The notes beneath the pieces are model-generated. The model was not told where the DNA came from. It made no database searches and saw only the letters and a program-made list of their open reading frames with translations. The translations under genes and the position numbers were made by a program. From Longimicrobiales bacterium (GTDB lineage: Bacteria > Gemmatimonadota > Gemmatimonadetes > Longimicrobiales > Gaopeijiaceae), in contig OZ220732.1 in the NCBI GenBank assembly GCA_965116905.1, forward strand, positions 576,001-640,000: DNA of 64,000 nucleotides, written 5' to 3'. This document shows, piece after piece, positions 9,456-62,399 of the stretch (its first letter is position 1; each line of letters starts with the position of its first letter).

Positions 9456-9655
9456 TCACCCCACGTTCTGAATCCATGTCTTGCGGATGTCGTCTGCATT
9501 CCATCCCGACGGCCGTGTAGAACTCGGGTTCCGCGGCGCGTTCAGGCCGGGAAACCGGATTCGGTGGACCATGGTATCGACCCGGTTCTCCAGGCACCAT
9601 ACGAAGTCGGCGGTGTCGTTGCGCTTGCCGTCAGAGTTGCGGCACGTCTTGAACA
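9456..9655 (-). pseudogene. 3'-terminal remnant of a paralog of the 59536-61260 zinc-protease lipoprotein
   Basis: FKTCRNSDGKRNDTADFVWCLENRV...PSGWNADDIRKTWIQNVG* aligns with LRTCRVDGSKRNDVSDFVWCLENRV...PSDWDADDIRRTWIQNVGY*. Confidence 0.85.
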
Positions 9656-14941: not shown

Positions 14942-14982
14942 CACCCCCGGGCTCGTCCTCCACGAACCCCCGGTATCCCAGC
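14942..14982. repeat. 41-bp direct repeat, copy 1 (duplicate of the 3' end of the 16537-19944 gene)
   Basis: Matches 16551-16591 at 40/41 positions. Confidence 0.95.
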
Positions 14983-15116: not shown

Positions 15117-15182
15117 TCAGCCCGCTGGTCGGAGGACCCCCCTCTCGCCACGATTACTCGACTCCCACAGTGAGGAGAATCA

Positions 15183-15380
15183 ATGTCGCGCTTCAACCGT
15201 GTTGCCCTGACCCGCTCCCTCGTAATAGCGATAGCCGTAGTCTTCGCTCCCCTCCTCGCGGCCCAGACCACAACGCCGTGTTTCGACGAGTGCCATGCAG
15301 CCGCAATGGACCGTTACAACGAAGGCATGCCGCTCTTCATGAACGACGCGATTTTCAAGCTGTGCCTCGACCTTTGCTAA
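15183..15380 (+). CDS. Small secreted Cys-rich peptide (CX3C-X23-CX3C)
   Basis: GAGGAG RBS; ~27-aa signal peptide ending LAA|Q; 38-aa mature region with four Cys. Confidence 0.75.
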   Translation: MSRFNRVALTRSLVIAIAVVFAPLLAAQTTTPCFDECHAAAMDRYNEGMPLFMNDAIFKLCLDLC

Positions 15381-15415
15381 CACTGCACCCTGGCGGCAAG
15401 CATCCACTTTCAACT

Positions 15416-16438
15416 GTGGCGGCCGTCTCCGTGGCGGTCGCTGCAGTTGCGTGTGACTCCGGGACGGTCACCACTCCAGCCGTCCCCCTCGCTTCTATCG
15501 CCTCCGTGTCCGCACCGTTTAGCGTTGACACGCGCATCGTGCTAGTGGATGAAGACCTCGTATGCGTGAACAACTCCTTCGAGATGCGAGTCCGGTGTGT
15601 TGACCAGCGCGGCGACCTGGTCGGTGTATTCGGTCGCAGGGGAGAGGGCCCAGGGGAGTTCGAACTGCCACCGAGTCTTGTGCGCGGACCCGACGGCACG
15701 GTTGGCGCCATCTCCATCAACCGGCTTGCCATCTTCACCCCCGGTGGGGATCTGGTTGATGAGATAACCTTACCCGTAGGCTTTCCCCTTCCGGCCGCAA
15801 AGTCGTTTGATACGACTCTTCTGGCCAACTACTACCTGGGCGGGGCCAATATGACCTTGGTAGAGATCGACCTCTCATCCGCCACCGTGCTGTGGGAACG
15901 CCAGGACATCGCCCACATCGCCGCGACCGAGTGCGGCAGCGTTGCACTGGGAGTCGCTTCTCCCTCCGGAGGCTGGACGTTCCCCGCGTGTCAGCGTGAA
16001 CTCGCATTCCTCGACGATCGTGACGCATCCACCGCTACCGCCATCCTGTCTCCAACCTATGCCGAAGAGTTTCCCAACGAACGCGATATCGCGGAGATGC
16101 AAGCCCAGACCCAGCCCTTTGCCTTTCGAGCGGATTTGGACGTGTACAGGGAGACCCCGAAGCGCAATCACCTCAGGGTCGGGTCCCTTGCGTACGACGA
16201 TGAAGGCCGTCTTTGGGTAGCCACGGAACGAGACCGTTCCCGGTTCTCCTATTTCGACCTCTATGTCGGCACCGAGCACGTCGGCTCGGTGCGGATCAAG
16301 GATCGCCTTCTGGGCTACGACCTCTATGGTTCCACCCTGGCTGCCCTGGTCGAGCGCGACCCCGACACCGACGGAATAGGACGCCGTGCCGTGGACTGGT
16401 ACGATATTGGGCCTCTGGATTTCGGTGTGGGACAATAG
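15416..16438 (+). CDS. 6-bladed beta-propeller (NHL-like) lipoprotein
   Basis: Lipobox AVAC; FGRRGEGPGEF; DDEGRLWVAT. Exact start uncertain. Confidence 0.8.
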   Translation: MAAVSVAVAAVACDSGTVTTPAVPLASIASVSAPFSVDTRIVLVDEDLVCVNNSFEMRVRCVDQRGDLVGVFGRRGEGPGEFELPPSLVRGPDGTVGAISINRLAIFTPGGDLVDEITLPVGFPLPAAKSFDTTLLANYYLGGANMTLVEIDLSSATVLWERQDIAHIAATECGSVALGVASPSGGWTFPACQRELAFLDDRDASTATAILSPTYAEEFPNERDIAEMQAQTQPFAFRADLDVYRETPKRNHLRVGSLAYDDEGRLWVATERDRSRFSYFDLYVGTEHVGSVRIKDRLLGYDLYGSTLAALVERDPDTDGIGRRAVDWYDIGPLDFGVGQ

Positions 16439-16536: not shown

Positions 16537-19500
16537 CTACCGATTCTCGCCACCCCCGGGCTCGTCCTCCACGAACCCGCGGTATCCCAGCGCCCGCTGC
16601 CGCGGCCAGACCTCGTCGAGGGTCTCCGCGTCGAACAGCCTCCCGTTGATCATCACCTGCTCGACCAATTCGGTATTCCGGAGATCGTCGAGGGGGTTGC
16701 GCGACAGGATGGCCAGGTCGGCCAGCTTGCCGGGCTCGATCGAGCCGAGTTCGGTCTCGAGGCCGATGCCGTTGGCGCCGAAGATCGTGGCGGACTTGAG
16801 CGCGTCGTGGTTCGACATGCCGCCCGAGGCGACCATCCACAGCTCCCAGTGGAACCCGAGGCCCTGGAGCTGGCCGTGGCTGCCGACCCCAGCGAAGCCG
16901 CCGTCAGCGACCACATCGGCCAGGAAGCGGGCGTGGTCTTCGAAGACGTACTCCTCGTCGATCGCCCACGCGACCGAACCCGCCGCGCCGGCGCGCCGCC
17001 GGGTGCGGGAGTCGAGGGTCTCGCGGGGTGTGAATCGCACCAGGCGCTCGTTGCCGAGCACGTCCTCGGTCGTGAACCAGTAGATCTCGCCCATGGGGCC
17101 GCCGAAGGAGACGATCAGCGTCGGCGTGTTCAGGACCTTTGTCGCCGAAAAGAGGCGGACGACATCGTGATAGAGGGGGTAGATGGGGACGTTGTGTTCG
17201 ATCCCGGGATAGCCGTCCATTGCGTGCGTCAGGTCGGCCTGATAGTCGAGTCCGGCCTCGGTCGTCGGCATGAGCTCGAGTTCGCGCGCCGCCATGACGA
17301 GCCACTGTCGCTGCTGGCGGTTCCCCGAGAGGTACATCTTGAACGTCTTGGTGTCGTAGTAGTCCGAGTAGCGCCTGAGGACATTGCGCGCGTGGTCGAG
17401 GTCGCGGATGCCCTCCAGCGCCTGGTAGTTGCCGAAGACCCCCGGGCCGGTGGAGAAGATGCGCGGTCCCAGGATGTCGCCTGACCGCACCCGGTCGGCG
17501 TAGGTGAGGACGTCCGAGACGCCGGTCTGGGGGTCGCGTGTGGTCGTGACGCCGAACGCCAGGTTGGCGAGGTAGCCCCACGGCTGCGTGGTGTGGACGC
17601 CGGCCGGCGGACGCAGGTGGGCGTGCGTGTCGACGAAGCCGGGCGTGATGGTCATGCCGGAGACGTCGCGGACCTCGGCGCCGTCGGGGACGGAGAGCGT
17701 GCCGGATGGGCCCACCGCGGCGATGCGGTGGCCGTCGATGAGGATGTCTCCCCGTTCGATGACGTCGTCCCCGCGCATCGTGATGACGCGTGCGCCGGAG
17801 AGCAGGAGCGTCCCGGTGGGCAGGTCGCGGGGGACGTCGAGGGCGACGCGGACTTCGGTGGGCTGGTAGCGGGGGTTGGAGGAGGAGGACGCGGCTGGAT
17901 CGTCGGTCGCCGCAGGGTCGGCGGCGTCCGCAGGGTCGGCCTCGTCGGACTCCGCAGCCTCCGCAGCCTCGACGCTGTCCGCGAATGCCTCCGCGTCGGC
18001 CAGGTTGTAGCGGAAGTACGCGTTCCCGAGTGCCCAAACCGCCTCGGTGCCGTCGCTGCTCCAAGACTGGAACTCGCCGCCGGACTCGGTGATGCGGGTG
18101 ACCGGGACCGCTGCGCCGGAGGGACTCCGGACCGAGACTGTCGGGGCCTCGGCGCCCACCTGTGGGACGGTCACGAGGTAGAGGTCGTTGCCCACCTTGG
18201 CCAGCGCCCGCCCCCCGGCGGGTGACACCCGAATCGAGGAGGCGTTGGCCGGGGGACCGCTACGGTTGGCCGAGAAGCCGGTGACCTTGAGGTGTTCCTT
18301 CTCGTCGGTGCCGTCCCAGCGGATCGAGACCAGGCCGCGCGTGCCCGCGTGCAGGTAGATGCGGTCGGGTTGGTCGGTGCGGAAGTGCGGCTGGGAGCGT
18401 CCCAGCGCCTCCGCCACGATTGTCGCCGCGGCGGGGGCGCCGCTGCCCGCCCCGTACCAGACGATGTCGGCCTGGCCACCGCCGCCGGCACCTTGCAGAC
18501 GTGCGCGCACCGGTCGCTGCAGCGCCACGATGCGGTCGCCGTCTGGAGACCAGGCGGGGGATTGCAGATAGCGGGCCGCGTCCGACACGCGCCGGGCGCC
18601 GTCGCCATTCGCAGGGATCTCCCAGAGATGGCCACCGTCCGGCTCACGCCAGCTCACCGCCGCCAATGTCTCGCCGTCGGGCGACCACGCGGGATGGAAC
18701 ACGGCACCGTCGACCTCCGCGCCGATCCGGCGCGGGACACCTCCACCTGCTTCCATCACATACAGCTGGCCAAGCGCGGTGAAGGCGACCGTGCCGCCGT
18801 CCGGCGACAGGGCGACCTCGCGGATCTGGCGCGCGCGGAAGGTGGGCGTGTCCTCGACCGGGTAGTCGAAGTCGAGGCGGGGGCCCGCGTGGATGACCAC
18901 GTCGGCCGTGAAGGGGATCTCGGTGGGCTCGTTCGCGTCCGTCTCGCCGGCGTTTGTCTCACCGGCATCCAGCGGCACGCGCCACAGGCGGCCGCCGTAC
19001 GAGGCGATCAGCGCGGTGCCATCGGGCGTGAAGGCGTAGCCGGGGAGGAGGTCGAGGGTCGCGCGGCTCTCCATGTCGTCGCGCTGCACGGGGTAGACGA
19101 GCCAGCGTTCGTTGCCGGTGGCGAGGTCGCGGGCGCGGAGACCCGTGGCATCCTCGTGGCGGGAACCGTAGACCAGCGTGGCGCCGTCGGGGGATACGGC
19201 CGGGCGGAACCCGGAACCGTAGCGGCCGGTGACCGTAGGGCTGCGGCCTGTCTCGCGGTCATAGCGGACGAGCTGGTACTTCGGGAAGGCCGCGTCGTAG
19301 GTCCAGTCGCGCGTCCCCTGCGCGAGGTAGATGTAGCGGCCTGTGGGATCGAAGGCGGCCCCGATGGCCTTGAGCTGTTCGGGCTCGTCGATCAGGGCGA
19401 TCCCGCTGCCCCCGTCGCGGTGGAAGAGCCACGGCTTCGCGGCGCCGCCGAGCGGGCTGAAGGTGCGGGACGCGACGAGGTACTGCCCGTCCGGGGACCA

Positions 19501-35302: not shown

Positions 35303-35312
35303 AATGGGTTCG

Positions 35313-35328
35313 CGTTTCAGCTGAAACG
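35313..35328. repeat. Perfect 16-bp palindrome CGTTTCAGCTGAAACG, copy 1
   Basis: Intergenic; identical to 40581-40596, and the flanks also match in inverted orientation. Confidence 0.9.
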
Positions 35329-35352
35329 TATCCGACAGCATTGGAGACCGTC

Positions 35353-38300
35353 ATGCCAAGAACAGCTCCCATATTCTCCCTCGCCCTGATCGCCGCCCTC
35401 CCCACCCTGGCCGTCGCGCAGGACGCCGACGAGTGGAGCATCGAGGAATCGCGGGCTCCTTCCACCACCCCCCTCAGATTCACCGCGTCGGAAGGCACGT
35501 GGATCAGTCTCGATGTCTCGCCGGACGGACGGCACATCGCGTTCGAGCTGCTCGGGCACATCTACGAGATGCCGATCGAGGGGGGCGACGCCGTGGCGCT
35601 TACCGGCGGGCGCTCGTGGAACAGCTTTCCGCGCTACAGCCCGGACGGGACGCGGATCGCGATCACCTCGGACAGGGGCGGGAGCGAGGACGTGTGGATT
35701 CTGGATCGCGGAACGGGGGATGCGGCGGATCCGGGCGACGCGGCCGCCATTGACCCGCCGGAGAACGTCACGAAGATGGCGCTGCCGGTCGTGCAGGGAT
35801 CCTGGTCGGCCGACGGGCGGGCCATATACGCCTCGGCGCTGGAGCAGGACGGGAGCATGACCGCGTACCGCTTCAACCTCTTCGGCTCGCGCCAGGAGAT
35901 TGCGTCGGGAACGACTTTCCAGGCGATCACGCACTTCGACGAGCACCCGGAGCGCGCCGTCCTCTTCTACGAGCACGTCGACCGGCAGATCCCCCAGAGC
36001 GGCGCGCGCATCAAGACCTACGACCTCGAGACGGCCAAGATCCGCGTCCACCGCGAGCGGCCCGGCGGCGCTTTCAACCCTGCGCTCTCGCCCGACGGGC
36101 GCCACCTCGCCTACGGACACCGCGACGACCGGGACGTGGTCCTCGTCGTCCACGACCTGGAGACGCGGTCGGAGCGCGTGCTGGCGCGGGGACTCGACCG
36201 CGATCACCAGGAATCGGGCCCATACTACCATGGCGTCGCCCCGAACTGGGACTGGCACCCCGACGGGACGCACCTTTACCTGACCAGGGACGGCGGGATC
36301 CACGCTGTCGACATATCGTCGGGCGAGATCACCGAAGTCCCCTTCAGCGCCCTCGTGGACCGCCAGATCGACGAGACCATCCGCTTCCCCTTCGAGTTCC
36401 CGGAGGGCGAGACCCGGGCGTGGTCCTACCGCTTCGCACACCGCACCCCCGCGGGCGTCGTCTTCGAGGCGCTGGGCGACATCTGGCTGGCTGGGGACGA
36501 CGGCGACGGCGGTGTGCGCAATCTCACCCAGTCATCCGCCCACGAGACCAGTCCGGTGATCGACGCGGACGGCGGCTGGCTCTACTACGCGACCTGGACC
36601 GACACCGACCTCGGAGCCGTCCACCGCCGGCCACTCGCGGGCGGCGCAGCGACCGAAGTGTCATCCCGCCCCTCCCAGTACATGTCGCTGGCGCTGGGGC
36701 CAGACGGCGCCCTCGCCTTCATCCGGGGGGCCGGCGGCCTCATCAACGGCGCGCGCATCGAGGAGGAGACCGACTTCGAGCTCGTCGTGGTGGCGGGCGG
36801 CGAGGAGCGCAGAGTCACCGATGTGCGCGGCAGCGTCATGGCACAGGGGCGCGCGCCCCACACCGTCCGCTTCGACGACGCCGGCGAGTGGATCTACTAC
36901 ACCGAGTTCGTCCTGGGCACAGTCGCGGCCAACTCCGGCCTGAGCGCCGACACGCTGGTCCTCCGCCGCATCCGCCCCGACGGCACCGGCAAGGCGACCC
37001 TCTACCGCTTCCCGCACGCCGAACGCGCGGTCCTCTCCCCGGACCTCGCCTGGATCGCGTTCCGCGAGTACCAGCGCAGCTTCGTGACGCCCTTCGAATG
37101 GATCGGCAAGCCGGTCACGATCTCGGCCTACGACGGCATCGGCTTTGCCAGGCGCATCGACCCGTCCGACGGCGCGAGCATGGCCTGGTCGGATGCGGCG
37201 ACCGTGTCGTGGCCGCGGGGAGGCACGTTCCACGAGAAGGCGCTCGACGACATCCTTGCCGGCACCGACGGCACCCGGACCACCGACATCACGGTCCGCT
37301 TCGAGGTGGCCCTGCCCCGTACGACCATTGCGCTGACCAACGCCCGCGTCGTCACGATGGACGAAGGGCGAAGTGTTTTGGAGAGTGCGACGATCCTCGT
37401 GCGGGGACATCGCATCGCAGAGGTGGGACCCCATGTCGTCGTGCCTGCGGAAGCGCGCGTGTTCGATCTCGCGGGCCACACCGTCATACCTGGCCTCGTG
37501 GACGCGCACGCACACTCGGTCGGGCAGCTCGCGACGACGCAGCTGATCGAGCAGCGGCTTCCCGGCGTCACCGGCTCGCTGGCCCACGGCGTCACCACAC
37601 TCTACGAGCTCTACGGGTCCGAGGAGAAGGAGCCCTGGGTCAGCGACATGATCCGCTCCGGCCGCATGGATGGCCCGCGGATGCTCTCGGTCGGCGCGCC
37701 CATGTACGGCATCCGCGAGTACCGTCCGCGCACCTACCGCCCGATCGCCTCGTACGACGACGCCGACCAGCACGCCCGCTTCAGCCGCGACATGGGGATC
37801 ACCGCGCTCAAGGATTATGTCAACTTCACCCGCGCCGACCGCCACCAGCTGATCACGGCGGCGCGTGAGCGGGGGCTGAACGTGCTTTCCGAGACGGCCG
37901 CGATCCCCCCGATGAACTTCACGCAGATCATCGACGGCGTGACCGGGCTCGAGCACACGATGGGGCTGACGCCCCTCTACGGCGATGTGGTCGAGCTCTT
38001 CCGCGCGAGCGGGACCGGTGTGACGCCCACCCTGCTCGTCGTCTACAACGGCCCGGTGGGCCAGGCGTACTTCGACCAGTCACAGCGCTACTGGGAAGAC
38101 GAGAAGCTCCTGCGTTTCAGCACGGAAGAGCGGCTGCGCGGCCGCTTCCGCCGGGTCACGCACTACTGGGACGACGACCTGTATTCGCCCGAGATGGTGG
38201 CCGCGATGAAGCGCCTCTTCGACGCGGGCGTGCTGATCAACGCGGGCGGCCACGGCCAGATGCCCGGGCGCGACATGCACTGGGAGATGGAGCTGTTCGT

Positions 38301-38571
38301 GCAGGGCGGATTCTCGGAGATGGACGCCCTGCAGACGGCGACGCGGAATGCGGCGGTGTACCATGGCCTCGGCGCGGACCTGGGCACGATCGAGGCCGGC
38401 AAGCTTGCGGATCTGGTGGTGCTGGGCGCGAACCCGTTGGCGGACATCCGGCATACGCAGGCGGTCGTGTACGTGGTGAAGAACGGGGTGGTGTACAGCG
38501 GAGAGGACGCGGCGCGGGTGTATCCGGGGCCGGTGGCGGCGCCGGCGATGTACTTTCAGCGGGAGAGGTGA
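35353..38571 (+). CDS. Secreted amidohydrolase with N-terminal TolB/PD40 beta-propellers
   Basis: GGAGA RBS; signal peptide; EGTWISLDVSPDG, PGLVDAHAH, GGHGQ, GTIEAGKLAD; paralog of 16537-19944. Confidence 0.9.
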   Translation: MPRTAPIFSLALIAALPTLAVAQDADEWSIEESRAPSTTPLRFTASEGTWISLDVSPDGRHIAFELLGHIYEMPIEGGDAVALTGGRSWNSFPRYSPDGTRIAITSDRGGSEDVWILDRGTGDAADPGDAAAIDPPENVTKMALPVVQGSWSADGRAIYASALEQDGSMTAYRFNLFGSRQEIASGTTFQAITHFDEHPERAVLFYEHVDRQIPQSGARIKTYDLETAKIRVHRERPGGAFNPALSPDGRHLAYGHRDDRDVVLVVHDLETRSERVLARGLDRDHQESGPYYHGVAPNWDWHPDGTHLYLTRDGGIHAVDISSGEITEVPFSALVDRQIDETIRFPFEFPEGETRAWSYRFAHRTPAGVVFEALGDIWLAGDDGDGGVRNLTQSSAHETSPVIDADGGWLYYATWTDTDLGAVHRRPLAGGAATEVSSRPSQYMSLALGPDGALAFIRGAGGLINGARIEEETDFELVVVAGGEERRVTDVRGSVMAQGRAPHTVRFDDAGEWIYYTEFVLGTVAANSGLSADTLVLRRIRPDGTGKATLYRFPHAERAVLSPDLAWIAFREYQRSFVTPFEWIGKPVTISAYDGIGFARRIDPSDGASMAWSDAATVSWPRGGTFHEKALDDILAGTDGTRTTDITVRFEVALPRTTIALTNARVVTMDEGRSVLESATILVRGHRIAEVGPHVVVPAEARVFDLAGHTVIPGLVDAHAHSVGQLATTQLIEQRLPGVTGSLAHGVTTLYELYGSEEKEPWVSDMIRSGRMDGPRMLSVGAPMYGIREYRPRTYRPIASYDDADQHARFSRDMGITALKDYVNFTRADRHQLITAARERGLNVLSETAAIPPMNFTQIIDGVTGLEHTMGLTPLYGDVVELFRASGTGVTPTLLVVYNGPVGQAYFDQSQRYWEDEKLLRFSTEERLRGRFRRVTHYWDDDLYSPEMVAAMKRLFDAGVLINAGGHGQMPGRDMHWEMELFVQGGFSEMDALQTATRNAAVYHGLGADLGTIEAGKLADLVVLGANPLADIRHTQAVVYVVKNGVVYSGEDAARVYPGPVAAPAMYFQRER

Positions 38572-38608
38572 GGGGGCACGCTGCTCGATGAGGGGGCACG
38601 CTGCTCGA
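38569..38608. repeat. 20-bp tandem duplication beginning at the stop codon
   Basis: tgagggggcacgctgctcga x2. Confidence 0.95.
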
Positions 38609-38612
38609 ATAT

Positions 38613-38637
38613 GTATTTTACGTAAAATACGTATTTT
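38613..38637. promoter_or_regulatory. AT-rich palindromic operator/promoter candidate
   Basis: Perfect 18-bp palindrome gtattttacgtaaaatac containing TAAAAT; 38618-38637 recurs at 40602-40621 (18/20). Confidence 0.65.
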
Positions 38638-38757
38638 GTCGGGTGCCTACTCCGTCGCCCACGGCGGAAGATGCACGGCAACCCGTCGTATGTCATATTT
38701 CGGGCACCCCGATCCCCGCCGACGGACGGGGGTAGGCGGCAGCCCCGGAGGTATCTC

Positions 38758-40542
38758 GTGAACATGACCGATGCGGAGATCCGCCAGCGTCTGCGGCTGG
38801 GCGAGGACAGCGGCTGGGAGTTCAAGCAGATCGAATTCAGTGGCGACCGCCCCACGAGCCCCCGGCGAGAGGACCTTGCCGATGAGATGGCGGCTTTCGC
38901 CAACGCGAACGGCGGCGTGCTTATTTGCGGGGTCTCCGACGACGGGCGGCTTCAGGGGATGTCTTCCGGGCAGATGGCCGCCCTCGACCGACTGTTGGTC
39001 GAGGTAAGCACCGATGCCGTGGAGCCTTCCCTCCGCGTCAACGTTCATCATCGGGAACTCGACGGAAAAGCCTTCGTGCTCGTGGACGTTTCGCGGGGCG
39101 ATTCCGTGCATGAACGGGCCGGTCGCGCATTCATCCGGGTCGGCGCGAGCAAACGGCGCCTCGGCGGCGACGAGCGTCTGCGGCTGGCGCAGAGGCGTGC
39201 CCAGAGCCGCTACCTCTGGTTCGACCGACAGGTCGTTCCTCAGACCGGGTTCCACACCCTTCGTGAGCGCCTGTGGGAACCGCTGCTCAGTGCTGCGGGA
39301 GCGAGCGACCCTCGCCGGGCTCTGGAGAACCTAAAGCTGCTGGCGTCCGATGAAGCCGATGTGGACCGGGCGACCGTCGCGGGCGTACTGCTCTGCACCG
39401 ACTCGCCCCAGCAGTGGTTGCCGCAAGCCACGATCATGGCGACGCTGTACCGTGGCAAGGATCGCGCCTCCGGCCAGATAGACTCACAGGAGATCGAGGG
39501 GCCGCTTCCCGCCCAGATCGCCGACGCGGTGAAGTTCGTGGTCCGCAACATGCGCGTCTCGGCACGAAAGACACCTGCTCGCGAAGATGCGCCGCAGTAC
39601 AACAAGGCGGCCGTGTTCGAGGCGGTGGTCAACGCCGTTGTTCACCGCGACTACTCGATGTCGTCGAGGCGCATCAGGCTGTCGATGTTCAAGAACCGGC
39701 TGGAAATCGACTCCCCCGGCCAGCTTCCCAACGGAATGACGATAGACGGCATGGACTCGATCCAGGCCACCCGCAACGAGGTCCTCGCTTCCGTGTTTGG
39801 ACGAATCCCCGTCGGCGACGTTCCCGGGTCCGATCATCGACGCTACATGATGGAACGGCGGGGGGACGGTGTCTCGATCATTCTCAAGGAGACGCGTGAA
39901 ACCGCCGGCGTTGTGCCGGAGTACAGGGTCGTCGACGAATCGAATCTGGTCCTCGCCATCCCGGCCGCCAGACTCGAACTTGTGCGCTCGGACGCCACGG
40001 TCACGGTGCATTCCGAAGGCGAACCGCTTGCTGGCGTCGATGTCCTCGCCCTGTTTCCGAACAGGACCTGGCAGCGGGCAACAACCGACGAGGCCGGTGA
40101 GGCGGAGTTCGATCTGTACACGACGCACCTGCCGATGACCGTGTACGCTGCCGCGCCCACCTATGCCGCCGGGCTGGCACGAGAGTGGACGCCGCACCAG
40201 GGCGGTCTGTTGCTGGAACTGGCTCCGCTCCCGGACGGAGGCGCCGTCATTTTCCCAAATGCTACCGGGAATGTCCCCGGACTGCGCGGTCGGTTGAACC
40301 CGAAACGCGATGCCTCGGACCGGACCTACCTGTACGCCGACAACATCGCTATCGACGAGGGAAGGCAGCAGCCGGTCTCCTTCCGGCTGGGCAAACCGTT
40401 GCGGCTTACGGACGCGTTCGGGGTCGAGATGTCGGTGACCATCGTCGATGTCGTCGGGCGGTCGGCCTTGGTGGAGTACCGAAGCTTTCAAGCGGAGATG
40501 CCGGCGCCTACTCCACCACCCGCAACCGAAACACCCACGTGA
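38758..40542 (+). CDS. Schlafen/AlbA_2 domain + HATPase_c_4 (RecG C-terminal-like) protein with a beta-rich C-terminal extension
   Basis: GEDSGWEFK, AAFANANGGVLICGVSD, EAVVNAVVHRDY, RLEIDSPG, RN, MERRGDG; GGAGG RBS before GTG. Confidence 0.85.
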   Translation: MNMTDAEIRQRLRLGEDSGWEFKQIEFSGDRPTSPRREDLADEMAAFANANGGVLICGVSDDGRLQGMSSGQMAALDRLLVEVSTDAVEPSLRVNVHHRELDGKAFVLVDVSRGDSVHERAGRAFIRVGASKRRLGGDERLRLAQRRAQSRYLWFDRQVVPQTGFHTLRERLWEPLLSAAGASDPRRALENLKLLASDEADVDRATVAGVLLCTDSPQQWLPQATIMATLYRGKDRASGQIDSQEIEGPLPAQIADAVKFVVRNMRVSARKTPAREDAPQYNKAAVFEAVVNAVVHRDYSMSSRRIRLSMFKNRLEIDSPGQLPNGMTIDGMDSIQATRNEVLASVFGRIPVGDVPGSDHRRYMMERRGDGVSIILKETRETAGVVPEYRVVDESNLVLAIPAARLELVRSDATVTVHSEGEPLAGVDVLALFPNRTWQRATTDEAGEAEFDLYTTHLPMTVYAAAPTYAAGLAREWTPHQGGLLLELAPLPDGGAVIFPNATGNVPGLRGRLNPKRDASDRTYLYADNIAIDEGRQQPVSFRLGKPLRLTDAFGVEMSVTIVDVVGRSALVEYRSFQAEMPAPTPPPATETPT

Positions 40543-40580
40543 GCACCTGTCCGGTTCGCTTCCGTGCTGGGGCGGATTCA

Positions 40581-40596
40581 CGTTTCAGCTGAAACG
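40581..40596. repeat. Perfect 16-bp palindrome CGTTTCAGCTGAAACG, copy 2
   Basis: Intergenic; identical to 35313-35328. Confidence 0.9.
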
Positions 40597-40633
40597 CGAA
40601 ATTACGTAGAATACGCATTTTCTGCACAGACAC

Positions 40634-41173: not shown

Positions 41174-42679
41174 CTACTCCGTCACCCGCACCTGAAACGC
41201 GCCGGTAAGCACCTCTCCGGCCCGCTTCACCTGAACCCAGATGGTATAGTCGCCCGCCTGGGGGAAGGCGTAGGGGAACTCGACGGTGCCGGGAACACCC
41301 TCTCCAGCCTCCGCCATTGGCTGCATCTGCGGCGCCAGCACGGACAGCGAGCCCATCGAGATCGTGCCCGCAGGGTGGAGGTGCACGAACACCGAGCCAT
41401 CGTCGCGGGTGAGAGCCGCATGGCTGATCATGCCCATGTAGGGCTCGAGCGAGGCCGGTTCTCCCGCCGGGTCCAGCACGGCGAACGAGAGCACGACCTC
41501 TTCGTCAACGCGCAGCGCCGATTCCCCGAGCCAGTGCAGGGTCGATCCGTCCGAAGGCGACGCTGAGGCGCCGGGCGCCGACACCGGGGCGGGCGTGCCT
41601 CGCCATGACGAGTCGTCGGGATCCCCTTCGGACAGGGCTTCCGGGGCAGCGCCCGAGTCTCCCTCTGCAAGCGCCCCCGCGTCGACCAGCGCCTCAGCGG
41701 GCACCAGCGCCCCCACCTCCACCAACACCGTGTCAACAACCGTCTGCGCGAACCCGGATTCATGCACGATGTCGCCGTAGATGCGGTATTCGCCCGGTGG
41801 CAGGTCCGGCCACGGAACGCGGAAGGTCGCCGAGTCCACCGGAACCGGGTGAACGTGTGCGAAGGCATCCATGTCGGGCGCGCCGACGACGAACATGTGC
41901 ATGAGCTTGCCGTGGTCGGGCACCAGGGGACTCCAGTTCCGGCCCAACCAGGACGGATCCGTGATCCGGACCTCAAGCATGGGCCCACCGCCGCCGCCAG
42001 TCACCACACCCTCCACGGCCAACCGCTCGAAGATTCCGCCGCGTACATCCCGGTCGACCGCATCCCACCAGGCGTTGCCCCAGTACGCGCCGGTCAGCAG
42101 CAGGGCGGCGGCGCAGGTCATCGCGAACCATCCCCAGCGCCGCTGGGTCGCCTGCACTGCCTCGTCGGGTCCCAGGCGACTCTCGCGCACGGCCGCGCCG
42201 GCGATCGTCACCGCGCCCGCGAGAAGCAGTCCCCCCAGCAGCAGGAGCACCGCGCCCAGTGCAGGTGGCATGTCGAGAACACCCAACATGACCGAGGTCA
42301 CGGGCACGGACGCGGTACCCGCCCCGCGCGAACCCTCCACGGTCACTTCGATGCGGTAGGCGCCCACGGTCATCAGCCAGAGTTCGGCGCTGTAGAGTTC
42401 CGGATCGCCTGGCACGGCCACGGCGGGGTCCGGCGGCGGCGCTCCTCCTTCGGGTGCGGCATCCCAGCGCACGGGGCGCACGGTCACCCGCTCGACTTCG
42501 CCCACGCCACCCGTAACGCGCACCGAAATCTCCGCCAGGCCGGGAACGACGTCGGGCGGACGGACGACAACGGACACCGGGTAGGGCCCTGCGTCGCCCG
42601 CGAAGAAGACGTTCTTGCTGCCGACGTGTCCCGCGGTCGCCAGGTAGAGCCCCGCGACGAGCAGCAGGGCGCGCCTCAT
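41174..42679 (-). CDS. Exported, membrane-anchored His/Met-rich putative metal (copper)-binding protein
   Basis: Signal peptide followed by His; two TM helices; DHGKLMHMF..FAHVHP and PYMGMISHA..FVHLHP motifs; ATGA overlap with the upstream gene. Confidence 0.7.
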   Translation of the reverse strand: MRRALLLVAGLYLATAGHVGSKNVFFAGDAGPYPVSVVVRPPDVVPGLAEISVRVTGGVGEVERVTVRPVRWDAAPEGGAPPPDPAVAVPGDPELYSAELWLMTVGAYRIEVTVEGSRGAGTASVPVTSVMLGVLDMPPALGAVLLLLGGLLLAGAVTIAGAAVRESRLGPDEAVQATQRRWGWFAMTCAAALLLTGAYWGNAWWDAVDRDVRGGIFERLAVEGVVTGGGGGPMLEVRITDPSWLGRNWSPLVPDHGKLMHMFVVGAPDMDAFAHVHPVPVDSATFRVPWPDLPPGEYRIYGDIVHESGFAQTVVDTVLVEVGALVPAEALVDAGALAEGDSGAAPEALSEGDPDDSSWRGTPAPVSAPGASASPSDGSTLHWLGESALRVDEEVVLSFAVLDPAGEPASLEPYMGMISHAALTRDDGSVFVHLHPAGTISMGSLSVLAPQMQPMAEAGEGVPGTVEFPYAFPQAGDYTIWVQVKRAGEVLTGAFQVRVTE

Positions 42680-57527: not shown

Positions 57528-57636
57528 GGCGGGCGCGGGGTAAGCGGACCGGCGTCGAGTCGGCGAGAACGGGCGGACGGACGGGGCCGAGTGGGCGGGC
57601 GGCGTCGAGTGGGCAGACCGGGGGCGCCCATACGAG

Positions 57637-57673
57637 CATGCCGGTGTCCCTGGATTTGCCGCGGAAACGTGGG
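57637..57673. repeat. Left inverted repeat
   Basis: catgccggtgtccctggatttgccgcggaaacgtggg; weaker similarity extends outward to ~57616. Confidence 0.93.
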
Positions 57674-58086
57674 GGGGGCGATCCGAGGCAGCCGCCACCT
57701 CGGTGCCCCGCCAGCCGCATGCCGGACTGAGGCAACATCCGTTAGCCCACTGGCCCATCTCCGCAGCCCATCGCCCGGACCGATCCCGGGATCGCGCTTT
57801 CCGGCCACCCCGCTGTCCCAAACCGCCGAAACACAGGCCGATCCTGCTATAGACGGGTTTTGAAATGGCGGTTTCGGCGAGGTCCGGGACCGCGTCGTCA
57901 ATGCCGCCCAGGAGCCGCAGGTGGCCCGCTGGCGGGTGATCGGGCATCGGCGACCCTTCCACGTCATCCCGACCCGAGATCGTGCGTTCTGCGGCCGTAC
58001 GGAAGGCCGAAAATCCATGGTTAAATTTCAGGTGCGACAGTCTCACCACACATAAGCCGTTGCCGGACTTGAACCTGGAGGATCAC

Positions 58087-58599
58087 ATGAACACCACGCA
58101 ACTCGGAGAGCGGATCGCCGAACTCGCCGCCCGGATCAACATCGCCACCCACGAGATGCTCACCCTCGTCGCCGAGTTCGACCGCCGCGATGGGTGGGCC
58201 GACGCCTTCGACTCCTGCGCCGAGTGGCTCGCCTGGCGGACCGGGCGCACGGTCGCCACCTGCCGCGAGAACGTGCGCGTCGCGCATGCGCTCGAGGACC
58301 TGCCCGCCACCTCGGCCGAGATGAAGGCCGGACGGCTCTCCTACGCCAAGGCGCGGGCCATCACCCGGGTGGCCACACCACAGACCGAGGCGGAACTGCT
58401 CGACTACGCCCACAAGGGCTCGGCCGCGGCGGTGGAGCGCATGGTGTGGGGGGTGCGGCACCGTGGGAAATGTCCCATAGTCCGCCGCTGTCCGATGTCG
58501 TCCGAGCCAGTACGTGGGCAGCTGGACGCCACCGCCAGCGGCACTGAAAACACCTCCCCAACGTCTTGGGCACGGTTTCGTCGGAGCTCGGCTTCGTAG
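58087..58599 (+). pseudogene. DUF222 (13E12-repeat-like) HNH endonuclease, N-terminal fragment
   Basis: GGAGGA RBS; LGERIAELAARI...EFDRRDGW...SCAEWLAWRTG...ENVRVAHAL..LP...GRLSYAKARAITRVATP; similarity ends near 58463. Confidence 0.85.
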
Positions 58600-58833
58600 G
58601 CCAGCCCGAACCACCGCCGCCAGCCACCGCGTGAAGTACCGAGCCTTGTCGGCGAAAGCTTGACGCTCGTCGAATACGCGCGATCGTGCGCAGGGTGCTG
58701 TCCTAATTGAGCATCTCCATCTCGAACGCATTGCCCGGGATGACGCAAATGCGGTGGGCGGAGATAGCCCTTGGCCGCACTCAGTTCTTCCCCTTCTTGG
58801 CCCCTCAGGCCACCATTCGAAGATTCATGGTCC

Positions 58834-59451
58834 TCAGCGGTCCAGGTGGTAGTTCACGGCGGTGACGAAGGTTCTTGCGACGCCGATGCCATCATGCTCT
58901 GATCGGAACAGGTCCCATTCTCTCAGGTTGATGCCGTACCGCAACTCCATCGTCACGCTGACGCGCTCGGTTGCTTGGATGGCGAGTCCAGCCCCGGCGA
59001 CAAAGCGTGCATCTTCCTCGGTCCCGTAGCACTCTCCCTCTGTTCCGCGGGTCAGGTTCTTCGCTCGACACCTGACCGGTATACCCCAGGTCGGACCGAA
59101 CATAAGCTGCAGGTCGAGTCCGTCTTGCCGCGCGACGCTTGCCTCTGCGATGACCGAGAAGTCGATGTGGTCTATCTGGTCACGGAACCTGTCGCCGCAG
59201 GGACCGGGACAATCGTAGTTTTCACGCCACAGCCAATAGCTTCCCTGCTTGTACGCAGCACCGAACCGAAAGCCGAAACGTTCGCTGACAGGAGCGTAGG
59301 CGGTAGCACCGACAGTCATCAGTGTCACTGGATGATCGCGGTAGTTGTCTTCGGGCCAAGTCGGCCCGCCCTGGACTCCGATTTCGGAGATTCCCGGTGG
59401 GAAGATGTACAGCAACACCCCCGAGACCATCAGCAATGCGAGGTTGTCCAT
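58834..59451 (-). CDS. Outer-membrane beta-barrel-like protein
   Basis: GGAGG RBS; hydrophobic N-terminus; amphipathic strands (FRFGAAYKQG, LMFGPTWG, FVAGAGLAI, MELRYG); terminal strand FVTAVNYHL. Confidence 0.65.
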   Translation of the reverse strand: MDNLALLMVSGVLLYIFPPGISEIGVQGGPTWPEDNYRDHPVTLMTVGATAYAPVSERFGFRFGAAYKQGSYWLWRENYDCPGPCGDRFRDQIDHIDFSVIAEASVARQDGLDLQLMFGPTWGIPVRCRAKNLTRGTEGECYGTEEDARFVAGAGLAIQATERVSVTMELRYGINLREWDLFRSEHDGIGVARTFVTAVNYHLDR

Positions 59452-59535
59452 AAGTCCCCCTCCTGTTCCAGAAGAACCGGCGGCCACCGGGCCAAGTCCG
59501 CATCCCGGTGGCCCCCCGCTCCTGACCTAATGTCC

Positions 59536-61260
59536 TTAGTACCCCACGTTCTGGATCCAAGTTCGTCGAATGTCGTCTGCGTCCCAATCGGACGGCTCGG
59601 AGGCGCCCTCGGTCGCGTTGTCCGGTGCACCGATGCCGGGAAAGTTCGAGTTGTGCACGATCTCGCTGACCCGGTTTTCGAGGCACCACACGAAATCCGA
59701 CACGTCGTTGCGTTTTGAGCCATCGACACGGCAAGTCCGGAGGACCTCGGATACATAGTGTGCTGGGTAGTTCGTTCGATCGTCTCCCTCGTCCGCCGAG
59801 TCGATCAGATCCGTGAACAGCGCGGCAACGTGGCCCTCGATCTTGCCCGGAATGCCGTTAGTATTCCGGAGTTTCTCCCATTGTCCCGGCTGCTGCCGGC
59901 CGATCGAGCCGGCGTAGCTTGCGAACCCCTCCTTGAACGCGCACTCGTACGATGTCGCTTTCCACACGCCGCCGCGGTCCTTGCCGCATCTCGAGGCACT
60001 CCATGTTCCGCCGAGCGACTTGTTGTGCAATGCGTGACCGTACTCGTGTCCGGCTACCTGCTGGCTCCAATAGCCTCCCTTATAGAAGGTGATTTTATCC
60101 CCGGTCCGTGAGTACGACCCGCCGCCGGAAGCGGACGAGTACTTGTAGTCCACGGCCGACCGCGACTGGTCGAAGTGGTCGTCGATGCGCGGTATCGACT
60201 GGCCCAGGTGGCGCCACGGCAGATACCACTTGTCGCTGATGACAAACAAGGACGTAGAACCGCAGTCGTCCTGGTCCACCTGGGTGCTTCCGATGGAGTG
60301 ATTCGCGTTGACTTCCGTGGTCGTGGGAACCGACCCGGCGACGTTCATGTACTCGGCATCCTCGTCCTCGGGACACGGGAACGTGATCAATCCGCTTTCG
60401 CCCACCTCCCTGATGATGATGTCCCCGGACCAGTCGCCGGGGTCGAGGTACATCGCCTGGACGTACGCTCCCGATGCGGCGTGGAAGCTGCCACCACTGT
60501 AGTAGCCGACCCTAACGCCGATGGAGTCGGACCCGCCATTGGCGCCCGCAGCGCTCGCGGTCATGTCGGCGCCGGTTGCGGTCCGGCTCTCGTACCTGGT
60601 GCGGAACGGGCCGGGTTGCGGGACGAGGTTGTCATCGAAAACCGACTCGTCGAATTCGTTGGTGACGCGGCCGCCTCCGTCCATCACAAGCAGCCATGCC
60701 TCGCCGTAGCCATCGTCGAATACATAGGGATCCCACTTGTCGTCAGGTCCCTGCGCATCGACATCTACAGCCACATGGTAGTAGCCCTTGTCGGGCAACT
60801 TGACGGCGACGGACCTCTTCCAGGTGCCGCCCTCGTCGAGGGCGGGTACCTCCCATTTTGCCACCACGGGCAGTTCCTTGCCAATCGGATAGTTCGGCCG
60901 ATTGCCCTCCCCGGCGTGATCCATCGCCGCCATCGTCGGCAATCGCATCCGCACTTCGCCGCCCGTCAGCTTCTCGGTGGCAACACCCTCGATCCAGATC
61001 GTGACCGTCTGGTGCGGCTCCAAGTCGCCTTCGACCTCCAGTGTGACTGCGAAACGTGATCGGAAGTTGTCGACCGATCCGCCGTCGTCAGCGGCGTGGG
61101 CAGCCGCAAGGCCGAGCTCATCGCCCCCGACATCCGGCTGCTCGACAGCGATGGGATCGTCGTCACAGGCTCCCACCAGGAGTACACCGCCAACGGACAG
61201 CACGACCTTCCAGAACCCGATAGTCCCGTTGAGGTTTCTGATCTCTTTTGGCCTGTTCAT
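59536..61260 (-). CDS. Lipoprotein with a gluzincin-type zinc metallopeptidase motif
   Basis: AGGAGG RBS; lipobox VGAC; VAGHEYGHALH followed by AFKEGFASY. Confidence 0.8.
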   Translation of the reverse strand: MNRPKEIRNLNGTIGFWKVVLSVGGVLLVGACDDDPIAVEQPDVGGDELGLAAAHAADDGGSVDNFRSRFAVTLEVEGDLEPHQTVTIWIEGVATEKLTGGEVRMRLPTMAAMDHAGEGNRPNYPIGKELPVVAKWEVPALDEGGTWKRSVAVKLPDKGYYHVAVDVDAQGPDDKWDPYVFDDGYGEAWLLVMDGGGRVTNEFDESVFDDNLVPQPGPFRTRYESRTATGADMTASAAGANGGSDSIGVRVGYYSGGSFHAASGAYVQAMYLDPGDWSGDIIIREVGESGLITFPCPEDEDAEYMNVAGSVPTTTEVNANHSIGSTQVDQDDCGSTSLFVISDKWYLPWRHLGQSIPRIDDHFDQSRSAVDYKYSSASGGGSYSRTGDKITFYKGGYWSQQVAGHEYGHALHNKSLGGTWSASRCGKDRGGVWKATSYECAFKEGFASYAGSIGRQQPGQWEKLRNTNGIPGKIEGHVAALFTDLIDSADEGDDRTNYPAHYVSEVLRTCRVDGSKRNDVSDFVWCLENRVSEIVHNSNFPGIGAPDNATEGASEPSDWDADDIRRTWIQNVGY

Positions 61261-61412
61261 GGCACCCTCCTGGGTATGGGTCCTACCGACCGCCCGGATC
61301 AGATGTCGAGTGAAATCCCGGTAGGGCCAAAGTTGGTCGCCGTGTGTTGGAGCACGTGTAGGCTCCCCAAACTCACTACTCCAGTATTGGCAACGGATTC
61401 CAGCGCTCATAG

Positions 61413-61469
61413 AGGGAAAACCCGGTAGTTCGTAGGGGAAAACCCGGTAGTTCGTAGGGGAAACTCCGG
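61413..61469. repeat. 22-bp tandem repeat (~2.5 copies) upstream of the metallopeptidase gene
   Basis: Rgggaaaacccggtagttcgta x2, then ggggaaactccgg. Confidence 0.9.
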
Positions 61470-61796
61470 CCAAGCCACGAAAGCGTTGAGCGTGAAGGCG
61501 GGGGACTGGAGGCTCTGTCCCGAAGCTGGGCAGGGAGCGAGAACCGGTTGGTTGTCAACACGTCTCCATCGAACCGAAGTAGGCGCGATGATCGGAAGAG
61601 AAGCGCGGAGGCGACCCTCGGGAGCGGGTAGGCAAACGCGACCGGAGGTGGCGCCGGGATTCCCGCCAATCAAGTCCGGCTTTCCCGCTGTCGCAGCACT
61701 GTCCAGCAGGGTCCAGCCCGATGGCAACAGTGACAGATCGTGCAGTTCTGATTGAACTTACGTGATCTCTTGCCGTGATTCAGGCCTTGGGTGCTC

Positions 61797-62198
61797 CGCC
61801 TGGCCAACACGGTGCTGCTCTGCCGGCGGCACCACCGGCTCGCGCACGAGGGCAGGGTCCGGATGGCGCTCGACCGGCGCGACCGGGCGGTGTTCTTCGC
61901 GCGCAGCGGGGCGGCGGTCGCAAGCGCGCCCCCGCTGCCGGAGCCGACGCTGCCTCTGCCGTCCCCGCCCCCGCTTGGGCCCGGCGAGATGTACAACGGT
62001 GCGGCACGGCTCCTGGACTCGGCGATCCCATGGGAGATCGAGGCCGCGGCACGGGAGGCGGTGGAGGCGGCACCGGAGGCGGGCGAGGTGGGCAAGCAGG
62101 CCGGCGAGCCTTGCAAGGCGGTGGAGCAGGTCGGCAGGGCCGACCGCAGAACCGACCGCAGACGCCAAGACACCCCGCCACCCGCCCAGGCCGCCTGA
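61797..62198 (+). pseudogene. DUF222-HNH endonuclease, C-terminal fragment
   Basis: RLANTVLLCRRHHRLAHEG is the distal half of an HNH motif; the proximal half is missing; the stop lies 2 nt before the right inverted repeat. Confidence 0.8.
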
Positions 62199-62200
62199 GT

Positions 62201-62237
62201 CCCACGTTTCCACGGCAAATCCAGGGACACCGGCATG
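62201..62237. repeat. Right inverted repeat
   Basis: cccacgtttccacggcaaatccagggacaccggcatg; weaker similarity extends to ~62257. Confidence 0.93.
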
Positions 62238-62399
62238 TCGGGATGGGACACCAGGTCACAATTCAGAAGGAGCAGGAGCCGGGGACAACCGCCTCGACGA
62301 TGAACCCTTCGCCCCCGACCGGCACCCGGCGTACCTTGCAAGCAACCAGACGGCCGTGACCGGCTGTCGAAAGAGAGGATCAAAACGCCGAGGCTCACA

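Follow-up and report, generated by a model that had tools for sequence, protein, structure and literature searches.

This analysis concerns a dispersed DNA palindrome and the DUF222-HNH genes to which it belongs, starting from a stretch of 64,000 nucleotides (the window) of a Longimicrobiales bacterium (GenBank assembly GCA_965116905.1, contig OZ220732.1, positions 576,001 to 640,000 of the forward strand). The palindrome, CGTTTCAGCTGAAACG, is proposed to be the duplex DNA target of a DUF222-HNH protein that would be SOS-induced and read it through a ParB-type domain; nicking by this protein, followed by repair, would spread the gene and sustain the sites, and a probability of about 0.52 is assigned to this reading. 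It is considered likely that the protein of DUF222 subfamily B binds the palindrome at all, either as such a nuclease or in a domesticated, Noc-like role. The source genome (4.2 Mb, 68% G+C) is designated G000, and the other genomes compared are designated G001 and so on.

The window holds two copies of the palindrome, at 35313 and 40581, as a model working from the letters alone (the sequence-only reading) had described; both are exact and no further copy is present with up to 2 mismatches, the number of window matches expected by shuffling being 0.06:

35313..35328, no strand: free palindrome 1, CGTTTCAGCTGAAACG, in the 50 bp that separate a beta-lactamase-family gene from an amidohydrolase gene.
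40581..40596, no strand: free palindrome 2, 38 bp 3' of a Schlafen gene.

In the whole genome, the 14-base core was counted 19 times exactly, 28 times with ≤ 1 mismatch and 34 times with ≤ 2, whereas a fifth-order Markov model predicts 0.005 copies for the 19 counted. The core is the commonest perfect 14-bp palindrome of the genome (19 copies vs. 5 for the runner-up). The exact copies lie inside the subfamily B DUF222-HNH gene(s) and at 17 further places; a genome-wide count of GTTTCCGCGGAAAC in G000 gave 0 copies. The association with DUF222 suspected from the window held, mainly through a second subfamily located elsewhere, and the copies are not all oriC-proximal, the 19 exact sites being dispersed with 4 of them ≤ 420 kb from the origin. 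Of 28 sites with ≤ 1 mismatch, 16 are intergenic and 12 are within coding sequence, compared to 85% coding for the genome. Gaps between convergent genes are favoured over promoters (7 of the 16 intergenic sites, p 0.006).

Six DUF222 genes of two subfamilies, about 42% identical, are present in G000. The two copies of subfamily B (genome positions 1.145 and 3.588 Mb, the latter at 3587799-3589190) carry the exact palindrome in frame, where it is read as VSAET using codons rare in this genome (GTT 6%, TCA 3%, GCT 4%). VSAET had been suggested as a recurrent peptide of DUF222-HNH proteins and is indeed a conserved motif of the family. Subfamily A comprises four copies, one of them a broken element in the window (57627-62247); it encodes VSAET by ordinary, non-palindromic codons, and its inverted repeats carry CGTTTCCGCGGCAAAT. 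The proposed link between palindrome and DUF222-HNH family is thereby retained, but the carrier of the exact variant is subfamily B and not the A element of the window. Intact HNH catalytic and zinc residues follow PF02720 in the B genes and in the intact A genes.

Homologous sites from other genomes were collected from 80 loci. The core was readable in 76: in 53 it is a perfect 16-bp palindrome, in 19 a single pair is broken, and in 4 more than one. A dyad that is perfect or nearly so is thus retained, via compensating changes, by 72 of the 76 homologues (four phyla), and the variants AGCT, CCGCGG, GTTCCCGCGGGAAC and GTCTCCGCGGAGAC recur on several branches. Because the variants differ by compensating changes and one of them, GTTCCCGCGGGAAC, turns the peptide VSAET into VPAGT, it is the DNA dyad rather than the peptide that is under selection. 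Gene and free copies match in their variant: 19/19 are AGCT in G000, 44/46 are CCGCGG in G030 (the 1 AGCT copy lies within its one B-like gene), 4/4 show the mixed variant of the resident gene in G046, and 6/8 match in G047. Among the matches listed, the copies of G042 and G043 are nearly all GTTCCCGCGGGAAC and those of G041 are a mixture of variants, as is also found for G045.

The occurrence of sites follows that of the genes. Of 24 congeneric relatives, 17 contain 5-23 AGCT copies and the other 7 lack them; the B gene was found in 14 of the 17 and in 0 of the 7. G004 has subfamily A only and no free AGCT sites. In the order, 37 of the 51 DUF222-bearing genomes and 1 of the 100 others have at least 5 copies of the degenerate site, a tally (151 genomes) which includes in-gene copies and in which kin are not independent. 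The lone DUF222-negative genome with at least 5 copies holds DUF222-HNH fragments. On a ParB+ParA tree, the motif-free genus genomes fall in at least four places. Some free sites of G000 and its relatives are flanked by 12-29 bp derived from the DUF222 gene.

B residues 25-385 were modelled with AlphaFold2 using an alignment of 105 sequences (pLDDT 90). The N-terminal part of the model resembles the DNA-binding domains of ParB, Spo0J, KorB and Noc, and the C-terminal part resembles HNH nucleases; a ParB/Noc/KorB-type DNA-binding fold is accordingly predicted for the B N-terminus. In a structural comparison with 48,161 chains, the top match was the ParB DNA-binding domain on parS (Z 9.0, rmsd 6.6, 113 residues aligned), Spo0J scored Z 7.8 (rmsd 2.3, 89 aligned), and KorB and HNH domains were also on top. 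Foldseek placed ParB and Noc entries first, none at E ≤ 0.001. When the HTH_ParB profile was run on G000, the two B genes ranked second and third after parB, below the curated cut-off. A BLASTP comparison of the B protein with the G000 ParB gave no match, a sequence search of the PDB gave HNH matches only, and no Pfam match to a ParB_N / CTPase domain was obtained in the B protein, the only ParB_N of the genome being that of parB.

For ParB and Noc, the roles of individual residues at parS and NBS have been described (PMC7383237). At the position aligned by eye to R204 of Caulobacter ParB, 104 of the 105 sequences have the Arg, and the HNH and zinc residues are kept in 100-104 of 105. According to a linear alignment, the equivalent of ParB position 179 in B would be Lys/Arg, as in Noc. 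Subfamily A forms a single clade which has lost the internal palindrome and has Asn/His/Gln instead of Lys/Arg at the 179-equivalent of the recognition helix, which suggests its use as a natural loss-of-site control.

Four copies of the repeat CCGAAC-N5-CCGAA are present in the genome, one upstream of lexA, one upstream of each B gene and one in coding sequence. With one mismatch, the same repeat precedes recA, a uvrC-like gene and a PA0069 radical SAM gene. Two LexA-like genes are present in G000, and CCGAA-N6-CCGAA is probably the SOS box of this lineage. The direct repeats, in coordinates of contig C1 of G000, are:

2293761: before lexA.
2853767: before recA.
509292: before the uvrC-like gene.
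3675609: before the PA0069 radical SAM gene.
1145824: before the first B gene.
3587721: before the second B gene.

The mechanism which we envisage begins with the SOS response, which would switch on the B gene. A B dimer would then dock on the dyad and the HNH domain would nick DNA nearby. Recombination repair at the nicks could spread the gene with ragged ends, leave short gene-derived fragments around some free sites, and convert or maintain near-matches in host genes. A conserved CCGAAC-N5-CCGAAC repeat marks the start of the B copies, which share ragged ends; a target duplication was not seen when copy ends were compared. Fixed ends and target-site duplication, the classical hallmarks of a transposon, are thus not seen in B; subfamily A does have inverted repeats. 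Tandem units of site, spacer and site are found in relatives. As a side observation, G022 (L008 2970-3170) has several palindromes, some 42 bp apart, inside a long ORF, apparently as an in-frame linker.

Ten of the 26 non-DUF222 sites are inside host genes, according to our own gene calls, and are read as VSAET or FQLK. The site in a molybdopterin oxidoreductase gene was followed through 24 relatives: 11 have it exactly, 2 differ from it by one base and 11 lack it, and no indel is seen. Its A/T-ending codons are retained 4/4 in 8 distant relatives, compared to a background retention of 10-21%. Another copy, in an aminotransferase gene, adjoins a second dyad, and the 36-bp block made up of the two has ≤ 2 changes in 9 of 10 orthologues. 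Host-gene copies therefore arise without indels and persist through saturated synonymous change, and either selection or repeated conversion would maintain them.

The second dyad, ACTWAAC-N6-GTTWAGT, is dispersed as well, with 22 sites on G000:C1 (≤ 2 mismatches), many of them at 2.22-2.38 Mb. It is found at both ends of both B genes of G000 (L024, L026) and brackets some B genes; it abuts the palindrome at 2378566 and 3701275, and it also stands in frame in host genes. The exact form is present in 9 of 41 genomes, the same 9 which have the composite site in the aminotransferase gene. This AT-rich dyad does not precede lexA or recA. A gene beside it was considered as a recombinase and rejected, since it reads as a methyltransferase-like protein.

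The distribution around the chromosome was analyzed in seven single-contig genomes. Sites ≤ 100 bp apart were counted once, and rows for parS and one non-member row were dropped; the patterns differed slightly between genomes, two genome sizes were rounded, and parB replaced parS in G009. The fifth of the chromosome farthest from parS contains 2 of 114 sites, where 23 are expected, and the remainder is evenly spread. The largest gap between sites (1.0-2.7 Mb) spans the antipode of parS in 7/7 genomes. DUF222 genes themselves are in the terminal fifth in 1 of 46 cases (five genomes). As controls in G000, other dispersed repeats were found to be undepleted there (26/75), but the frequency of genes with ≥ 3 paralogs is roughly half, and with this correction the number of sites expected falls from 23 to about 13. 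The avoidance is thus partly explained by fewer accessory genes at the terminus, and shared ancestry of sites inflates the count. Sites of Noc and SlmA are described as absent from the terminus region (PMC4331003), and the dispersed palindromes resemble those of Noc-NBS in sparing it.

The sites are also used by IS110 elements, which were found in relatives and not in G000. One such element was found in two places, a B gene and a free unit, and at each it is inserted in the AGCT palindrome; for a different IS110, each of the 3 junctions examined lies in the end palindrome of subfamily A:

L276, L277, L300, L302 and L304: IS110 loci in AGCT or A-end palindromes.

Two variable segments of the non-coding end match the element's own target in at least 6 of the 7 variants aligned, as judged by eye; other IS110 variants target other sequences. 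By analogy with the guide logic of bridge RNAs (PMC11208160), the matching segments are predicted to behave like bridge-RNA guides. ISPpu9 is an IS110 element which inserts into REPs. The arrangement here is alike in that the IS110 elements sit in palindromes and their predicted guides match the target, the IS110 being a secondary user of the site.

The broken subfamily A element of the window is composed as follows:

57627..57673, minus strand: left inverted repeat of the subfamily A element, with an imperfect CCGCGG-type palindrome (from the sequence).
58087..58462, plus strand: 5' part of the subfamily A DUF222 gene (Pfam DUF222; alignment to an intact copy).
61800..62198, plus strand: 3' remnant of the same DUF222-HNH gene (alignment to an intact copy).
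62201..62247, plus strand: right inverted repeat of the same element; its homologue within B genes is the spacer-plus-palindrome unit.

About 3.3 kb of other genes stand where the middle of this gene, with VSAET and most of HNH, would be. The inverted repeats, 47 bp each, bear CGTTTCC(G/A)CGGCAAAT, in agreement with the related imperfect palindrome first described for them. A profile from 8 distinct B spacers placed all 4 right repeats of subfamily A in the top 27 of about 8.4 million positions, i.e., they match the spacer between the tandem palindromes of B genes. The cargo of about 3.3 kb (58463-61799) encodes a 574-aa protein without Pfam match and a possible beta-barrel protein.

Around the two free palindromes, the window contains the following further features:

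35353..38571, plus strand: PD40/beta-propeller amidohydrolase gene, a bystander between the sites (Pfam).
38764..40542, plus strand: Schlafen AlbA_2 + HATPase_c_4 gene, variable cargo (Pfam).
40509..40563, minus strand: old copy of the 3' end of the minus-strand gene at 41174, about 18 bp left of palindrome 2 (sequence comparison).

Palindrome 1 is found in the same place in G001, G002 and G013, is decayed by 3 substitutions in G021 and is absent from G003, G014 and G018. Its retention in relatives and its decay in place in G021 mark it as old by sequence comparison. Palindrome 2 is kept in G013, where homology ends 3 bp to its right and the right flank differs. The sequence-only reading had the two copies face each other around the amidohydrolase and Schlafen genes. 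The inverted agreement of their flanks is present as written, but ranks only 20th among 342 pair-orientations of the 19 exact sites, no better than chance, and in relatives the two genes and two sites occur independently of one another. In G001, G002, G005, G014, G018 and G021, the next conserved gene comes after the amidohydrolase gene directly or via other cargo and without Schlafen, and the Schlafen gene is found at other loci without palindrome in G004, G006, G008, G011 and G016. Reads of 4 runs (contigs only) confirm the window region and, among the joints listed, contain none between site 1 and site 2. In 2 of the 4 runs, a joint 40527>41194 leads from Schlafen to the next gene with palindrome 2 missing, passing through the duplicated gene end at 40509..40563. 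Breakpoints in gene content lie 3-14 bp from both sites in some relatives, which together with the flank match would fit a mobile unit; since the gaps there are short, this proximity proves little alone. That the copies are the inverted ends of a mobile unit bearing both genes is therefore largely refuted and has very little probability left. Flank profiles showed no DUF222-gene flank around either window site, and we infer that both are old, independent docking sites in a region of shifting gene content.

Several further repeats were noted in the window. AT-rich repeats of the TACGTAAAA type stand on either side of the Schlafen gene (38612-38640 and 40603-40622), at about 6 further genome positions and in the Schlafen-free allele of G002. 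Three copies of differing age of the 3' end of the minus-strand gene at 41174 are found at about 38646, 40509 and 41174, which suggests repeated integration into the end of this gene. A 41-bp direct repeat (14942-14982 / 16551-16591, 98% identical, 1.6 kb apart) surrounds ORF 15170-16438. Positions 9458-9513 and 59541-59596 form a 56-bp repeat, 79% identical and 50 kb apart, probably the ends of two paralogous genes.

Known systems share features with the palindrome. Its arms are the same as those of parS, and a lineage-specific parS variant bound by the chromosomal ParB had been offered as an alternative. Canonical parS, two TGTTCCACGTGGAACA, is beside the only parAB of G000, 6.5 kb from dnaA and 8 kb from the GC-skew minimum. 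Because canonical parS is in the parB locus of 25/25 genus genomes, with or without the palindrome, the variant reading is rejected and its probability regarded as negligible. The palindrome has the centre AGCT (CGCG in other variants) and not ACGT, and it does not cluster at origin or parAB, with only the 4 of 19 sites near the origin mentioned above. With ParB-parS, Noc-NBS and KorB-operator systems it shares the predicted DNA-binding fold and a 16-bp dyad with GTT(T/C)C...G(A/G)AAC arms; position 6 can be A or C, the same difference that separates parS from NBS (PMC7383237). Unlike in the ParB family, the centre is GC and not CG, a CTPase domain is missing, an HNH nuclease is fused, the site lies within the protein's own gene, and this gene is multi-copy and patchy, with an SOS-like promoter box. 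REP/RAYT systems consist of an HUH Y1 nuclease with dispersed palindromes. The REP/RAYT-like arrangement of the sequence-only reading was confirmed in its layout: a nuclease gene, here DUF222, is accompanied by many dispersed intergenic palindromes, tandem units and IS110 targets. Membership is rejected, because no HUH Y1 transposase (PF01797) was matched in G000, which is 97% complete, and the hairpin is weak, with a 6-bp stem no stabler than shuffles (z -0.9 and -1.1). Further differences are the HNH chemistry, the site in the gene and the many in-frame copies in host genes. Processing of a single-strand hairpin, DNA or RNA, by the nuclease would suit the intergenic dispersal, often 3' of convergent genes, the tandem units and the IS110 targeting as for REPs, but is improbable given this stem, the missing HUH Y1 gene, a would-be loop which is palindromic too in all main variants, and a protein with a predicted duplex-binding HTH fold. 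The palindrome system is thus REP/RAYT-like in layout and Noc-NBS-like in fold and map, but is a member of neither, nor of parS. REP13E12, named as a repeat class (PMC10589994), has the same domains as DUF222-HNH (PF02720 + PF01844) and is multi-copy. In the literature searched, at the level of listings and abstracts, we found no prior description of a DUF222-HNH palindrome site, of a mechanism, of a ParB-like domain or of dispersed cognate sites.

The remaining alternatives concern the role of the B protein. It may bind the sites but be domesticated, providing a Noc/SlmA-like mark outside the terminus during DNA damage, as a division checkpoint or repair aid. The gap at the antipode with flat density elsewhere, the parallel to Noc, the maintained host-gene sites, and the ParB/Noc fold combined with an SOS-like box speak for this role. 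It is nevertheless judged unlikely, for the gene is multi-copy, patchy and often fragmented and without the CTPase domain of ParB, the DUF222 genes spare the terminus themselves, the lowered expectation of about 13 sites weakens the depletion, and sites are common to kin by descent. Somewhat less probable still is another host DNA-binding protein which reads the dyad, with the DUF222 genes carrying the site as passengers. Sites without a B gene in G009, the intergenic enrichment and the conservation in host genes would be explained by it, but between genera and between phyla the palindrome variant changes along with the resident DUF222 gene, sites prefer convergent gaps to promoters, and a second ParB paralog was not found in G000. 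Several observations weigh against an SOS-induced nuclease with a ParB-type reader, too. At the sequence level, the ParB match is weak (Pfam E 0.016, hhalign probability 3.5%), the structural Z-scores are only moderate for a helical domain, Arg173, which reads G1 in ParB, is not conserved in B according to the linear alignment, and no recognition-helix residue was found to track the palindrome variant. Loss of the palindrome together with the helix change in the A clade is only suggestive, because it represents one event. Regarding occurrence, G009 is a single contig with 6 exact sites in which the B gene was not found, the same applies to the sites of the drafts G013 and G024, 5 of the 6 DUF222-free genus genomes are among the smaller ones, and the limits of the 151-genome tally have been given. 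Most free sites of G000, including both window copies, have no gene-derived flank (p 0.6). Finally, the long conservation in host genes and the terminus avoidance fit a host function at least as well, and a nuclease would carry its own target without obvious self-protection. The proposed SOS-induced DUF222-HNH nuclease with its cognate dyad is nonetheless preferred.

DUF222-HNH proteins are very common: 28,920 clusters at 50% identity were matched at E ≤ 0.001. Their function becomes testable with a named site, a predicted reader of ParB type and a clade that has naturally lost the site as a control. We tentatively propose, as a possibility short of even odds, that DUF222-HNH is a new kind of system, in which an SOS-induced, ParB-derived, site-specific nuclease carries its own docking site and seeds and maintains tens of chromosomal sites, in frame in host genes and never at the terminus, so building a Noc-like map at which recombination would be concentrated and on which RNA-guided IS110 elements would land. 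The variant series would provide natural pairs of ParB fold and site with a new centre, as well as natural pairs of IS110 guide and target. If the terminus gap is functional, it would represent a Noc-like chromosome map outside Firmicutes, derived from a mobile nuclease.

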